Assembly: GCF_055900595.2 (NCBI RefSeq)
Contig: NZ_CM148325.1
Reading direction: 5' to 3' (one strand)
Length of the DNA: 64,000 nucleotides
Of this stretch, positions 1,582 through 7,456 are shown one piece after another; position 1 is the stretch's first letter; the number at the start of each line of letters is the position of its first letter. A program made the position numbers and the translations under genes. The notes below the pieces were generated by a model. The model saw only the letters and a program-made list of their open reading frames with translations. It was not told the origin of the DNA and ran no database searches.

Positions 1582-2343
1582 ATGAGGATTTGCAGCGACC
1601 AACCTTGTATTGTTTTATTGACTGAAAAAGATGTCTGGATAAGGGTGAATGGGAAAGAACCTATTAGCCTTAAAGCTAACCATATGGCGTTATTAAATTG
1701 TGAAAATAATATTATCGACGTCTCCTCTCTTAATAACACTTTGGTTGCTCATATTAGTCACGACATCATCAAAGATTACCTCCGGTTTCTGAATAAAGAT
1801 CTCTCGCAAATACCAGTATGGCAACGTAGTGCTACGCCCATCCTCACCCTGCCATGCCTGACGCCAGACGTCTTTCGCGTTGCCGCGCAACATAGCATGA
1901 TGCCCGCTGAAACTGAGTCAGAAAAGGAACGAACACGTGCATTATTATTCACTGTGCTATCCCGTTTTCTCGACAGTAAAAAATTCCTTTCATTAATGAT
2001 GTATATGTTACGTAATTGTGTAAGTGACAGCGTTTATCAAATTATTGAAAGCGATATCCACAAAGACTGGAATCTTAGTATGGTAGCCAGTTGTTTATGT
2101 CTTAGCCCAAGTCTGTTAAAGAAAAAGCTGAAAAGCGAAAACACCAGTTATAGCCAAATAATCACCACCTGCCGCATGCGTTATGCCGTCAATGAATTAA
2201 TGATGGACGGTAAAAATATCTCTCAGGTCTCACAGTCGTGTGGCTACAACAGTACGTCGTACTTTATTTCTGTCTTTAAAGGCTTCTACGGTATGACGCC
2301 TCTGCATTATGTTAGTCAGCACAGAGAACGCACTGTCGCCTGA
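1582..2343 (+). CDS. adiY: AraC-family transcriptional regulator of the arginine-dependent acid resistance system
   Basis: 253 aa ORF with a C-terminal AraC-type HTH; AT-rich gene located between adiA and adiC. Confidence 0.85.
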   Translation: MRICSDQPCIVLLTEKDVWIRVNGKEPISLKANHMALLNCENNIIDVSSLNNTLVAHISHDIIKDYLRFLNKDLSQIPVWQRSATPILTLPCLTPDVFRVAAQHSMMPAETESEKERTRALLFTVLSRFLDSKKFLSLMMYMLRNCVSDSVYQIIESDIHKDWNLSMVASCLCLSPSLLKKKLKSENTSYSQIITTCRMRYAVNELMMDGKNISQVSQSCGYNSTSYFISVFKGFYGMTPLHYVSQHRERTVA

Positions 2344-2479: not shown

Positions 2480-3817
2480 ATGTCTTCGGATGCTGATGCT
2501 CACAAAGTGGGCTTAATCCCCGTCACCCTGATGGTGTCGGGGAATATTATGGGGTCAGGTGTTTTTCTGTTACCTGCAAACCTGGCCTCCACTGGCGGGA
2601 TTGCCATTTATGGATGGTTGGTGACGATTATCGGTGCGCTGGGGCTCTCGATGGTATACGCCAAAATGTCGTTCCTCGACCCAAGTCCTGGTGGTTCTTA
2701 CGCTTACGCCCGCCGCTGCTTTGGCCCGTTTCTCGGTTATCAAACCAACGTCCTCTACTGGCTGGCCTGCTGGATCGGCAATATCGCCATGGTGGTCATT
2801 GGCGTAGGATATTTAAGTTACTTCTTCCCGATTCTGAAAGATCCACTGGTATTAACCATCACCTGCGTCGTGGTGCTGTGGATCTTCGTCCTGCTGAACA
2901 TTGTCGGTCCGAAAATGATCACCCGCGTGCAGGCCGTTGCCACCGTGCTGGCGCTGATCCCCATCGTCGGGATTGCCGTATTTGGCTGGTTCTGGTTCCG
3001 TGGTGAAACCTATATGGCGGCATGGAACGTCAGCGGCCTGGGCACCTTCGGCGCGATTCAAAGTACCCTTAACGTTACGCTGTGGTCGTTCATCGGTGTG
3101 GAAAGTGCCTCCGTTGCCGCAGGTGTGGTGAAAAACCCGAAACGCAACGTCCCTATCGCCACCATTGGTGGGGTATTGATTGCCGCCGTTTGCTATGTAC
3201 TTTCTACCACCGCGATTATGGGGATGATCCCTAATGCCGCACTGCGCGTTTCTGCTTCGCCATTCGGTGATGCCGCACGGATGGCGCTGGGTGACACCGC
3301 CGGGGCCATTGTTTCTTTCTGCGCAGCTGCGGGTTGCTTAGGTTCACTGGGCGGCTGGACGTTGCTGGCGGGTCAAACGGCGAAAGCCGCTGCCGATGAC
3401 GGGCTGTTCCCACCGATTTTTGCCCGTGTAAACAAAGCGGGTACGCCAGTGGCAGGGCTGATTATCGTCGGTATTTTGATGACCATCTTCCAGCTCAGTA
3501 GCATTTCGCCAAACGCGACTAAAGAGTTCGGTCTGGTTTCTTCCGTGTCGGTCATCTTTACACTGGTGCCATATCTTTACACCTGTGCGGCGTTACTGCT
3601 GCTCGGCCACGGTCACTTTGGTAAAGCACGCCCGGCATATCTGGCAGTTACTACCATTGCCTTCCTCTACTGCATCTGGGCCGTGGTGGGGTCCGGGGCG
3701 AAAGAGGTTATGTGGTCATTTGTCACCCTGATGGTCATCACCGCCATGTATGCGCTGAATTACAACCGGCTGCATAAAAACCCGTATCCCTTAGATGCAC
3801 CAATAAGCAAAGATTAA
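2480..3817 (+). CDS. adiC: Arginine:agmatine antiporter (APC superfamily)
   Basis: 445 aa polytopic membrane protein, N-terminus [36 protein letters not shown] typical of APC transporters; synteny with adiA/adiY. Confidence 0.9.
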
Positions 3818-3843
3818 TTCCCCTTAATCCAGCAAACATAAAA

Positions 3844-3880
3844 GCCAACCTTAAGAACTTAAGGTTGGCTTAATTTTGCT
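3844..3880 (+). terminator. Putative rho-independent terminator of adiC (palindrome gccaaccttaag/cttaaggttggc followed by a T-rich run)
   Basis: Near-perfect inverted repeat with a T-rich tail immediately 3' of the adiC stop; the right arm overlaps the PmrA box listed next. Confidence 0.4.
3858..3874 (+). promoter_or_regulatory. PmrA (BasR) box CTTAAG-N5-CTTAAT upstream of eptA
   Basis: Sequence cttaaggttggcttaat matches the direct-repeat PmrA consensus YTTAAK-N5-YTTAAK; lies ~45 bp upstream of the preferred eptA start. Confidence 0.5.
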
Positions 3881-3920
3881 TTGCGAGCATATGCGCACTT
3901 TGTTCGATGGAAACACCGTG

Positions 3921-5564
3921 ATGTTGAAGCGCCTACTAAATAGACCCTCTTTGAATTTACTCGCCTGGCTATTGTTGGCCGCTTTTTATATCTCTATCTG
4001 CCTGAATATTGCCTTTTTTAAACAGGTGTTGCAGGCGCTGCCGCTGGACTCGCTGCATAACGTACTGGTTTTCTTGTCGATGCCGGTCGTCGCTTTCAGC
4101 GTGATTAATATTGTCCTGACACTAAGCTCTTTCTTATGGCTTAATCGACCGCTGGCCTGCCTGTTTATTCTGGTTGGCGCGGCTGCACAATATTTCATAA
4201 TGACTTACGGCATCGTCATCGACCGCTCGATGATTGCCAATATTATTGATACCACCCCAGCAGAAAGTTATGCGCTGATGACACCGCAAATGTTATTAAC
4301 GCTGGGATTCAGCGGCGTGCTTGCTGCGCTGATTGCCTGCTGGATTAAAATCAAACCTGCCACCTCGCGCCTGCGCAGTGTTCTTTTCCGTGGAGCCAAT
4401 ATTCTGGTTTCTGTGCTCCTGATTCTGCTGGTCGCCGCACTGTTTTATAAAGACTACGCCTCGCTGTTTCGCAACAACAAAGAGCTGGTGAAGTCCTTAA
4501 GCCCCTCTAACAGCATTGTTGCCAGCTGGTCATGGTACTCCCATCAGCGACTGGCAAATCTGCCGCTGGTGCGAATTGGTGAAGACGCGCACCGCAACCC
4601 GTTAATGCAGAACGAGAAACGTAAAAATTTGACCATCCTGATTGTCGGCGAAACCTCGCGGGCGGAGAACTTCTCCCTCAACGGCTACCCGCGTGAAACG
4701 AACCCGCGGCTGGCGAAAGATAACGTGGTCTATTTCCCCAATACTGCGTCTTGCGGCACGGCAACGGCAGTTTCAGTACCATGCATGTTCTCGGATATGC
4801 CGCGTGAGCATTACAAAGAAGAACTGGCACAACATCAGGAAGGCGTGCTGGATATCATTCAGCGGGCGGGCATAAACGTGCTGTGGAATGACAACGATGG
4901 TGGCTGCAAAGGCGTCTGCGATCGCGTGCCTCACCAGAACGTCACTGCGCTGAACCTGCCTGGTCAGTGTATCAACGGCGAATGTTATGACGAAGTGCTT
5001 TTCCACGGGCTGGAAGAGTACATCAATAACCTGCAAGGTGATGGCGTAATTGTCTTACACACCATCGGCAGTCACGGCCCGACCTATTACAATCGCTATC
5101 CGCCACAGTTCAGGAAATTTACCCCTACCTGCGACACCAACGAGATCCAGACCTGTACCCAAGAGCAACTGGTAAACACTTACGACAATACGCTGGTCTA
5201 CGTCGACTATATTGTTGATAAAGCAATTAATCTACTGAAAGAACATCAGGGTAAATTTACCACCAGCCTGGTTTATCTTTCTGACCACGGTGAATCGTTA
5301 GGTGAAAATGGCATCTATCTGCACGGTTTGCCTTATGCCATCGCCCCGGATAGCCAAAAACAGGTGCCGATGCTGCTGTGGCTGTCTGAGGATTATCAAA
5401 AACGGTATCAGGTTGACCAAAGTTGCCTACAGAAACAGGCGCAAACGCAACACTATTCACAAGACAATTTATTCTCCACGCTATTGGGATTAACTGGCGT
5501 TGAGACGAAGTATTACCAGGCTGCGGATGATATTCTGCAAACTTGCAGGAGAGTGAGTGAATGA
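3921..5564 (+). CDS. eptA: Lipid A phosphoethanolamine transferase
   Basis: 547 aa from the MLKRLL start (six-frame ORF begins at 3876, but the PmrA box position favours 3921); N-terminal TM helices plus a sulfatase-like periplasmic domain; stop overlaps the basR start. Confidence 0.85.
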
Positions 5565-6229
5565 AAATTCTGATTGTTGAAGACGATACGCTGTTATTGC
5601 AGGGATTGATTCTGGCGGCGCAAACCGAAGGCTACGCGTGCGATGGCGTGACAACCGCGCGGATGGCGGAACAAAGCCTTGAGACCGGTCATTACAGCCT
5701 GGTGGTACTGGATTTAGGCTTACCCGATGAAGATGGGCTGCATTTTCTCGCCCGTATCCGGCAGAAAAAATATACCCTGCCGGTACTGATCCTCACCGCT
5801 CGCGATACGCTGACCGACAAAATCGCCGGGCTGGATGTCGGTGCCGATGACTATCTGGTGAAGCCTTTTGCGCTGGAAGAGTTACATGCCCGTATCCGCG
5901 CCCTGCTACGACGCCATAATAATCAGGGTGAAAGTGAGCTGATTGTTGGCAATCTGACGCTGAATATGGGTCGCCGTCAGGTATGGATGGGCAGTGAAGA
6001 GTTGATTCTGACGCCCAAAGAATATGCTCTGCTATCACGGTTAATGCTCAAAGCAGGCAGTCCGGTGCATCGGGAAATTCTCTACAACGACATCTATAAC
6101 TGGGACAATGAACCCTCGACCAACACCCTGGAAGTGCATATCCACAATCTGCGCGACAAAGTGGGCAAAGCCCGTATCCGCACCGTGCGCGGCTTTGGCT
6201 ATATGCTGGTCGCGAATGAGGAAAACTAA
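5561..6229 (+). CDS. basR: Two-component response regulator BasR/PmrA (OmpR family)
   Basis: 222 aa; receiver domain (MKILIVEDD...[11 protein letters not shown]) and winged-helix output domain; start overlaps the eptA stop (ATGA). Confidence 0.9.
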
Positions 6230-6238
6230 TTGAATCTG

Positions 6239-7330
6239 ATGCGTTTTCTGCGCCGACCAATATCGCTGCGCCAACGGCTGATATTGACCATCGGGGCCAT
6301 TTTGTTGGTGTTTGAGCTGATCAGCGTCTTCTGGCTATGGCATGAAAGTACCGAGCAGATTCAGCTGTTTGAGCAGGCGCTACGCGACAATCGTAACAAC
6401 GATCGCCACATCATGCGTGAGATCCGCGAGGCGGTCGCCAGCCTGATTGTCCCTGGCGTCTTTATGGTCAGCCTGACGCTATTTATCTGCTATCAGGCGG
6501 TACGCCGCATCACCCGCCCGCTGGCGGAGCTGCAAAAAGAGCTGGAAGCGCGCACCGCCGACAACTTAACGCCCATTGCCATTCACAGCGCCACCCTCGA
6601 AATCGAAGCGGTGGTTTCAGCGTTAAACGATCTGGTCAGTCGCCTGACCAACACGCTGGATAACGAAAGGTTGTTTACCGCTGACGTCGCGCACGAACTG
6701 CGAACGCCACTGGCGGGGGTGCGTTTGCATCTGGAACTGCTGGCGAAAACGCATCACATTGATGTAGCACCGTTAGTGGCACGACTTGATCAGATGATGG
6801 AGAGTGTCTCCCAGCTACTGCAACTGGCGCGTGCCGGACAGTCATTTTCTTCCGGTAATTATCAACATGTAAAACTGCTGGAAGATGTCATTCTCCCCTC
6901 GTATGACGAACTCAGTACCATGCTCGACCAGCGCCAGCAAACCCTGCTATTGCCAGAGAGCGCCGCCGACATCATCGTTCAGGGTGATGCAACCCTGCTG
7001 CGGATGTTATTGCGAAACCTGGTAGAAAATGCCCATCGTTACAGCCCGCAAGGCAGCAACATTATGATTAAGCTGCAAGAAGATGGCGGAGCGGTCATGG
7101 CCGTTGAAGATGAAGGACCGGGTATTGATGAGAGTAAATGCGGGGAGTTGAGTAAAGCGTTTGTACGTATGGACAGCCGTTATGGCGGGATTGGTCTGGG
7201 GTTAAGTATTGTCAGCCGCATTACACAGTTGCATCACGGGCAGTTTTTCCTGCAAAACCGGCAAGAGACTTCTGGCACACGGGCCTGGATACGGCTGAAA
7301 AAAGATCAGTACGTGGCAAACCAGATATAA
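6239..7330 (+). CDS. basS: Sensor histidine kinase BasS/PmrB
   Basis: 363 aa from the ATG at 6239 (six-frame ORF begins at 6230); two TM segments, H-box AHELRTPLA, HATPase region with GIGLGLSIV. Confidence 0.85.
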   Translation: MRFLRRPISLRQRLILTIGAILLVFELISVFWLWHESTEQIQLFEQALRDNRNNDRHIMREIREAVASLIVPGVFMVSLTLFICYQAVRRITRPLAELQKELEARTADNLTPIAIHSATLEIEAVVSALNDLVSRLTNTLDNERLFTADVAHELRTPLAGVRLHLELLAKTHHIDVAPLVARLDQMMESVSQLLQLARAGQSFSSGNYQHVKLLEDVILPSYDELSTMLDQRQQTLLLPESAADIIVQGDATLLRMLLRNLVENAHRYSPQGSNIMIKLQEDGGAVMAVEDEGPGIDESKCGELSKAFVRMDSRYGGIGLGLSIVSRITQLHHGQFFLQNRQETSGTRAWIRLKKDQYVANQI

Positions 7331-7439: not shown

Positions 7440-7456
7440 ATTAAGTGAACCTTAAG
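7440..7456 (-). promoter_or_regulatory. PmrA (BasR) box CTTAAG-N5-CTTAAT upstream of pmrR
   Basis: Minus strand reads cttaaggttcacttaat, a match to the PmrA direct-repeat consensus, ~45 bp upstream of the pmrR ATG. Confidence 0.5.

Follow-up and report, generated by a model that had tools for sequence, protein, structure and literature searches.

The palindrome that lies between adiC and eptA is probably derived, in its core, from the eptA promoter. On the reading favoured here, the box at its right arm is the known PmrA box of promoter P1, the use of its RNA hairpin as a terminator is secondary, leaky, and restricted to certain lineages, and adiC termination and PmrA binding are not coupled through it. 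The window, which is the whole 64,000 nt stretch of DNA that was analysed, is E. coli K-12-type chromosome with the gene order adiY-adiC-eptA-basR-basS-pmrR-proP, based on the open reading frame list and the RefSeq annotation of matching genomes (Table 1). Positions 3800-3930 are 100% identical to strain K-12 MG1655, where window position x corresponds to NC_000913.3 position 4339511 - x. A 301 nt query around the site has matches in 5412 of 5426 complete E. coli genomes; a 75 nt query has matches in 5411, with 3929 of these at least 99% identical. No annotated feature lies beneath the intergenic match region in the complete E. coli genomes. Both strands of 3000-4600 were compared with Rfam using a permissive E-value, which returned only sub-threshold chance matches and no known RNA family.

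Table 1. Features of the adiC-eptA region, in window coordinates.
Feature	Position	Strand	Basis or remark
adiY	1582-2343		RefSeq annotation of matching genomes
adiC, arginine:agmatine antiporter	2480-3817	+	Stop codon TAA 3815-3817; ORF list, RefSeq
adiC 3' untranslated region, variable part	3818-3841	+	About 11 variable columns among 8 Escherichia sequences
Left arm of palindrome, AAGCCAACCTTAAG	3842-3855	+	Inner CTTAAG repeats PmrA half-site 1 in inverted orientation
Right arm of palindrome, CTTAAGGTTGGCTT	3858-3871	+	Repeat search, folding
PmrA/BasR box	3858-3874	+	Half-site 1 CTTAAG 3858-3863; spacer GTTGG 3864-3868; half-site 2 CTTAAT 3869-3874
U-rich tract after hairpin, TTAATTTTGCTTT	3870-3882	+	Interrupted by AA and GC
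TTG, start of longest six-frame ORF	3876-3878	+	Rejected as eptA start codon
Candidate adiC termination zone	about 3876-3879	+	Position of the U-rich tract
Predicted -10 hexamer of P1, GAGCAT	3885-3890	+	Promoter geometry, 10 nt after half-site 2
Predicted P1 transcription start	3896-3898	+	Promoter geometry, about 7 nt after -10 hexamer
GATGGAA block, probable ribosome-binding region	3906-3912	+	9 nt before ATG; 88-100% conserved (mostly 96-100%) in the adiC-linked group
eptA (pmrC/yjdB), phosphoethanolamine transferase, 547 aa	3921-5564	+	RefSeq; ATG conserved at box +63
basR, regulator binding the PmrA/BasR box	5561-6229	+	ORF list, RefSeq
basS/pmrB, sensor kinase of BasR	6230-7330	+	ORF list, RefSeq
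pmrR		-	Overlaps the end of basS
proP		-	RefSeq annotation of matching genomes

The PmrA box and promoter P1

The PmrA box, CTTAAGGTTGGCTTAAT, starts 63 nt before the eptA ATG on the plus strand, with 46 nt between its end and that codon. An experimentally derived consensus for PmrA boxes has been published, with CTTAAG as half-site 1, xTTAAT as half-site 2, and a 5 bp spacer (PMC3973317), and the same consensus is given in PMC10729948. PmrA is a regulator of the OmpR/PhoB family and its box overlaps the -35 element in pmrCAB, pbgP, and ugd (PMC10570014). The pattern YTTAAK-N5-YTTAAK occurs twice in the 64 kb window, where 0.04 matches are expected, and none of 100 shuffles gave two or more. 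One match is the box upstream of eptA and the other, at 7456-7440 on the minus strand, is upstream of pmrR; both genes are known PmrA targets. All of the defining sequence features of a PmrA box that were tested are present, these being the direct repeat, the -35 placement, and conservation in orthologues.

The eptA-pmrAB locus has been described as having a promoter with a PmrA box, P1, and an internal promoter, P2, with pmrR having its own PmrA-box promoter; eptA, basR, and basS/pmrB are co-transcribed, which amounts to autoregulation (PMC8129183). A 300 bp E. coli eptA upstream fragment fused to lacZ shows 7-fold induction by Fe3+ that is lost in a pmrA deletion strain (PMC2904496). The sequence at 3858-3874 is the box of this published PmrA-dependent P1 promoter of eptA-basRS and is already known. 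The initial annotation, made from the sequence alone, had taken the right arm of the palindrome and its adjacent bases to be a PmrA box, and the consensus match and the published promoter show that it is genuine. The description of P1 and the pmrA-dependent fusion also mean that transcription of eptA solely by read-through from adiC is already excluded.

A total of 58 EptA loci from the Enterobacteriaceae were anchored on the PmrA box, representing 53 distinct promoter sequences. Escherichia, Citrobacter, Salmonella, and Intestinirhabdus all carry the box at -63 relative to the eptA ATG, and Klebsiella, Kluyvera, and Raoultella have it at the corresponding position. A NANNAT hexamer follows half-site 2 after exactly 10 nt, at box +27 to +32; its A at the second position and its T at the sixth are each present in 100% of the 53 distinct promoters. 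The same 10 nt spacing is seen in the pmrR promoter of the window, with the hexamer CATACT, and in the MG1655 arnB promoter, where CTTAAGGTTAAGTTAAT is followed by 10 nt and then TAAAAT. By this geometry, P1 would start near 3897 and have a 5' untranslated region of about 24 nt. Phosphorylated BasR would bind both half-sites of the direct repeat as a head-to-tail dimer, and the box would substitute for the -35 element, recruiting sigma-70 RNA polymerase to the weak -10 hexamer GAGCAT situated 10 bp downstream. Translation of eptA from this transcript would begin at the ATG at 3921.

The longest six-frame open reading frame for eptA begins further upstream, at the TTG at 3876. It was proposed in the initial annotation that eptA starts at 3921 rather than here, and this is upheld. 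The ATG at 3921 is the RefSeq start and, as the ATG at box +63, it is conserved in relatives. Salmonella and many Citrobacter have in-frame stop codons 7 to 13 codons upstream of the conserved ATG, hence an N-terminal extension from the TTG is not conserved. The TTG is also upstream of the predicted -10 element and of the predicted transcription start, and therefore could not be on the P1 mRNA.

The palindrome in the eptA promoters of relatives

Positions 3840-3882 read aaaaGCCAACCTTAAGaaCTTAAGGTTGGCTTAATTTTGCTTT. The palindrome begins 24 nt past the adiC stop codon and, by repeat search, has two 14 nt arms (3842-3855 and 3858-3871) that are 100% complementary, with 2 nt between them. The 12 nt arms that were originally described 3' of adiC (3844-3855 and 3858-3869) are within this perfect repeat. 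As RNA, the 30 nt hairpin has a folding energy of -17.8 kcal/mol (z = -5.9), which none of 200 shuffled sequences equalled, and a 68 nt RNA that includes its context folds at -23.2 kcal/mol (z = -6.2). The hairpin is made up of a 13 bp stem and a 4 nt loop. Five of the 13 pairs are G-C and the centre of the stem is AT-rich.

The stem is not kept wherever the junction of adiC and eptA is kept. Where adiC adjoins eptA, the long stem is retained in Escherichia, C. amalonaticus, C. sedlakii, and a few others. It has been lost in Salmonella and in the Citrobacter freundii complex, where adiC is still next to pmrC and the box is retained. In both groups the stem is interrupted, in Salmonella as aacAttaag tt cttaagGTTCAC. 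The local RNA fold at the box is no better than that of shuffled sequence in Salmonella (dG -3, z +0.4) or in C. braakii of the C. freundii complex (dG -4.4, z +0.3). REP-like, G+C-rich hairpins without U-tracts are found between adiC and the box in both of these groups. Covariation in support of an RNA stem is weak, with 65% of cells paired and 4 pairs showing double changes, and a slid control is equal to this.

The inverted copy of half-site 1 takes the form of TTAA at -7 to -4 from the box, often as AACCTTAA mirroring TTAAGGTT. It has a fixed spacing and is conserved in 79-100% of sequences, across the 53 distinct promoters, with or without adiC, in Escherichia, Salmonella, Citrobacter, Klebsiella, Kluyvera, and Raoultella. 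The inverted copy outperforms shuffled upstream sequence at p<0.05 in 47 of the 53 distinct promoters, which are phylogenetically non-independent but represent at least 8 unrelated upstream contexts. It is present in several lineages that have no adiC at this location: the upstream gene is ybhK/CofD-like in Klebsiella, Kluyvera, and Raoultella, fumB in C. koseri, yjdF-like in Intestinirhabdus, and a divergent lplA in a Pantoea. In C. koseri, a 9 bp inverted repeat persists even though fumB has a canonical terminator approximately 100 nt upstream (score +32). Neither the inverted copy nor an equivalent palindrome is present at the PmrA promoters of arnB and pmrR. At pmrR, a REP-like hairpin of its own stands 9 nt before the box.

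Within Escherichia, 3843-3873 is invariant in the 8 sequences compared, which come from five species or clades, beside 25 nt of adiC 3' sequence (3818-3842) that vary at about 11 positions. Position 3842, the outermost base of the left arm, is among those that vary, changing from A to T in one sequence (L002). The constraint on the left arm thus equals that on the box. The invariance of this arm in Escherichia could equally reflect contact with a protein as the formation of an RNA hairpin.

The loss of the stem beside a retained adiC, the presence of the inverted copy where there is no adiC, its absence from arnB and pmrR, and the invariance within Escherichia together indicate that the core of the palindrome is part of the eptA/pmrC promoter and travels with eptA. 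By the same comparisons, the extension to a long hairpin and any terminator activity appear to be a lineage-specific elaboration. The presence of the half-site 1 copy in lineages with other upstream genes speaks against the palindrome existing because of adiC. The inverted copy just 5' of the box would thus be an old, conserved core of the promoter. In Escherichia and some Citrobacter it would have been extended into a perfect 13 to 14 bp complement of the box, so that transcripts arriving from adiC would fold into a stable hairpin, followed by UUAAUUUU. A terminator role would then be a secondary, lineage-specific use of promoter sequence and not the reason for the palindrome.

Several roles were considered for the inverted half-site. 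It may provide a second mode of PmrA binding, an AT-rich contact at approximately -46 to -43 from the predicted start, a site of cruciform extrusion, or a hairpin. A more specific suggestion is that it tunes the positive feedback of PmrA, independently of adiC, through non-productive binding of PmrA or through a cruciform that hides half-site 1; this is speculative and rather unlikely. A broader alternative, doubtful but with some weight, is that the whole palindrome is bound by protein as DNA, within the autoregulated eptA/pmrC promoter, and that the RNA hairpin is incidental. The inverted copy would here be a third PmrA half-site, supporting a second binding mode that is non-productive or modulatory, or else an AT-rich site contacted by the wing of PmrA or by the alpha subunit of RNA polymerase. 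The fixed and conserved spacing of the TTAA, whatever the upstream gene, is in keeping with this, as is the retention of the inverted copy beside a separate terminator in C. koseri and where the upstream gene is divergent (L026). Its absence from arnB and pmrR would make it specific to the autoregulated promoter. Some Citrobacter also have a left arm that, on the minus strand, comes close to a perfect PmrA box. However, the inverted copy is at a variable spacing of 0 to 4 nt in Pantoea and Tatumella, as would be expected of a hairpin more than of a rigid contact with protein, and the outer part of the arm, GCCAAC, is complementary to the spacer of the box, a stretch that PmrA is not known to recognise. 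The mirrored boxes also lack a -10-like hexamer, in which they are unlike divergent promoters. A divergent PmrA promoter on the minus strand was considered separately and rejected, the mirrored half-site 2 being CTTTTA in E. coli and the hexamers 10 nt beyond (ATTAAG in E. coli, AGGAGG in C. amalonaticus) not being -10-like.

It could also be argued that the long palindrome is functionally neutral, having been extended by chance or by duplication around CTTAAG. This sequence is itself palindromic and so acts as a seed for inverted repeats, several lineages have seen the stem decay with no obvious effect, and the covariation is weak. Against this, 13 positions of the left arm (3843-3855) are invariant beside the variable adiC 3' sequence, the long arms have p<0.001 in shuffle tests, and a perfect 14 nt inverted repeat is far beyond chance (z about -6). 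Neutrality is accordingly regarded as very improbable.

The hairpin as a possible terminator of adiC

A promoter-derived palindrome may still be used by transcripts from adiC. It is plausible that the hairpin has a terminator role for adiC, and in the lineages that have it the sequence suggests that it probably acts as a leaky intrinsic terminator, a stabiliser of the 3' end of the adiC mRNA, or both. As in intrinsic terminators generally, leaky ones separating tandem transcription units included, there is a stable stem-loop with a 4 nt loop shortly after the stop codon, then a U-rich stretch. It differs from them in its AT-rich stem centre, in its interrupted U-tract, in a score far under those of the canonical terminators of the window, and in a stem that Salmonella and the C. 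freundii group have not kept along with adiC. The T-run that had been reported after the repeat is present, but it is interrupted (TTAATTTTG). As transcribed, the tract UUAAUUUUGCUUU has 6 U among its first 8 positions, with an AA interruption, and its tail score is 2.78 compared to 4.6-5.1 for the best terminators of the window.

Every hairpin followed by a T-tail in the window was scored using a d'Aubenton-Carafa-type function (1990). The plus-strand site has d = -9.5 and ranks 27 of 657 candidates, with canonical terminators at +20 to +48, and since the formula was combined with modern energy parameters, it is the ranking alone that is meaningful. Neither adiC nor eptA has an entry in the Term-seq data of Adams et al. 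2021. The earlier proposal that one palindrome serves as both PmrA box and adiC terminator therefore holds for the box, and is no more than plausible for the terminator, given the interrupted U-tract, the rank, and the loss of the stem in Salmonella.

A consensus scan found the palindrome to be terminator-like on both strands. Bidirectional terminators have an A-tract, a hairpin, and a U-tract and are located between convergent genes. The site resembles these in having a symmetric hairpin, with AAAA upstream and a T-rich run downstream, and in being flagged on both strands. It differs in its upstream A-tract, which other Escherichia do not conserve. Since adiC and eptA are co-directional rather than convergent, both being on the plus strand, the site is not a conventional bidirectional terminator. 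The hairpin might instead be relevant on the minus strand alone, halting antisense transcription from eptA before it enters adiC. In this orientation it scores better than on the plus strand, at rank 7 in the window (d = +12.9), with the tail TTTTATGTTTGC. However, the minus-strand T-run is not conserved within Escherichia, being GGCTTATCTGCC in E. albertii, GGCTTATGCGTT in E. whittamii, and GGCTATTATGTT in another E. coli, and no antisense promoter is known within eptA. A function of this kind is thus highly improbable.

In the initial annotation, the element was taken to be dual-purpose, with terminator efficiency and PmrA occupancy modulating each other such that read-through from adiC is coupled to lipid A modification. 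It is true that the hairpin and the PmrA box physically overlap, and a leaky terminator would let some read-through reach eptA. Both systems are also acid-responsive: PmrB senses mild acid (PMC1804205; PMC8129183) and the adi system is acid-induced (PMC8147483). The geometry of the site, however, argues against mutual influence. The right arm of the hairpin is the transcript of the box, therefore polymerase coming from adiC would have to clear the whole box, displacing any protein bound to it while transcribing 3858-3871, before the hairpin can form. With the box cleared before folding, bound PmrA could not affect the hairpin, and the only role left to it would be that of an upstream roadblock. 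Termination would come at about 3877, past the box but short of the -10 element. The terminator could not, then, shield the box from adiC transcription and could only stop polymerase from continuing into eptA.

Comparative and published data point the same way. Salmonella and the C. freundii complex have adiC adjacent to pmrC and a PmrA box with no stable hairpin, and any coupling must therefore be dispensable. The 300 bp eptA fragment has autonomous PmrA-dependent promoter activity (PMC2904496), and no paper linking the expression of adiC and eptA was found in the literature searched. The acid responses of the adiC and eptA systems are independent. Coupling between the terminator and PmrA, which finds no support in the sequence, in Salmonella without the hairpin, or in the searched literature, is considered very unlikely.

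Significance and comparison with known systems

Since box, promoter, and start codon were each established beforehand, the analysis mainly re-derives known biology from sequence. EptA and BasRS control the phosphoethanolamine modification of lipid A and hence resistance to polymyxin and colistin, which makes the architecture of this promoter of practical interest. In E. coli, adiC transcripts probably terminate at, or leak past, a hairpin formed from the PmrA box, and this is relevant where the intergenic region is to be engineered or deleted. The conserved inverted half-site of the eptA promoter is a lead on how the autoregulatory loop may be shaped. The literature searched makes no mention of this inverted copy.

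The site is the pmrCAB promoter itself, in its E. coli version, and shares its features with the other PmrA-dependent promoters of Salmonella, Klebsiella, and E. coli, which include pmrCAB (eptA-basRS P1), pbgP/arnB, ugd, and pmrR. These have the same half-sites and 5 bp spacer, arranged as a head-to-tail direct repeat, with the same replacement of the -35 element and the same 10 bp to the -10 element. The arnB and pmrR promoters differ from that of eptA, which alone carries an inverted half-site 1 eight bp upstream, within what is a 14 nt palindrome in Escherichia. A further likeness is to the pho-box promoters of PhoB, also of the OmpR/PhoB family, where the activator site replaces the -35 element and is 10 bp upstream of the -10 element. 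Both have tandem direct repeats with an 11 bp periodicity at -35 and an equal distance to -10. The eptA box has a TTAA core, whereas that of the pho box is CTGTCAT, and the two kinds of promoter answer to a different regulator and a different signal.

The eptA-box hairpin in Escherichia

The end of adiC, AGCAAAGATTAA (3806-3817), is repeated as AGCAAACATAAA at 3831-3842, just 5' of the stem that overlaps the PmrA box of eptA. Beyond the box on its 3' side, TTTGCTTTGC (3872-3884) is complementary to both copies. In the minimum-free-energy fold this complementarity forms an outer helix that lengthens the 3842-3871 hairpin, and part of the U-tract, the candidate adiC termination zone, would then be paired. 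The repeat with its complement is seen in Escherichia only. When all hairpin-plus-T-tail candidates of the window (n = 657) are ordered by a terminator-type score, used for ranking only, the same hairpin comes 27th in the plus-strand orientation and does better on the minus strand (rank 7, tail TTTTATGTTTGC). The T-run of the minus strand is not conserved among other Escherichia.

Upstream regions of eptA in related genera

Among the fetched EptA loci, three from Citrobacter (L006, L009, and L018) have a left arm that runs on, some 20 nt 5' of the box, through a mirrored half-site 2, and their minus strand thus also carries a perfect or near-perfect PmrA box. No -10-like hexamer follows the mirrored box in L006 (C. 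amalonaticus), the sole genome checked. The C. youngae group (L014, L015, and L053) has a double change of C-G to A-T, affecting position 5 of the box and position -8 of the left arm (arms aacAttaag, left, and cttaaTgtt, right), which restores pairing where sister Citrobacter and Salmonella have an A.G mismatch. This is probably one evolutionary event and thus lends the stem only anecdotal support.

In Salmonella and in many Citrobacter, the stretch from adiC to the PmrA box contains inserted REP-like G+C-rich hairpins, which widen the gap from about 40 nt to 68-84 nt, and the insertion is often accompanied by decay of the outer stem.

In Klebsiella, Kluyvera, Raoultella, and Enterobacter (L025-L042, L048-L058) the gene directly upstream of pmrCAB is a co-directional ybhK/CofD-like gene, its stop codon in Kluyvera being only 13 nt from the box, and the box variant at these loci is CTTAAGGTTGTCTTAAA. 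Locus L027 is labelled Chryseobacterium and is enterobacterial in appearance; its assembly is therefore probably mislabelled or contaminated.

Features of the pmrR promoter region in the window, and PmrA-box features at related eptA loci
Feature	Location	Strand	Sequence
REP-like hairpin	7494-7466	-	GGCCTGAT...ATCAGGCC
pmrR PmrA box	7440-7456	-	CTTAAGGTTCACTTAAT
pmrR -10 hexamer	7429-7424	-	CATACT
pmrR CDS	7395-7306	-	
REP-like hairpins, Salmonella	L007/L008, about 2396-2425, upstream of box		
REP-like hairpins, Citrobacter	L011-L019, L023, L052-L056, upstream of box		
REP-like hairpin examples, Salmonella/Citrobacter			ggccggatagcgcaggttatccggtc; gcccgatgaggcg..cctcatcgggc
(Near-)perfect PmrA boxes	L006/L009/L018	-	CTTAATGTTGGCTTAAT, CTTAAGGTTGGCTTAAC, CTTAAGATTGGCTTAAT

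The pmrR promoter

A pattern scan of the 64 kb returned one perfect PmrA-box match other than that of eptA. It belongs to pmrR, the promoter of which is already known as a PmrA-box promoter (PMC8129183), and lies 50 nt beyond the proP stop codon. The gene driven from it overlaps the 3' end of basS in antisense. Between the proP stop codon and this box, 9 nt upstream of the latter, is a REP-like hairpin that has no T-run. Both PmrA promoters of the window are therefore directly behind a hairpin located 3' of a co-directional gene, although at pmrR the hairpin and the box are separate, whereas at eptA they overlap. The pmrR box shares its spacer, GTTCA, with the pmrC box of Salmonella.
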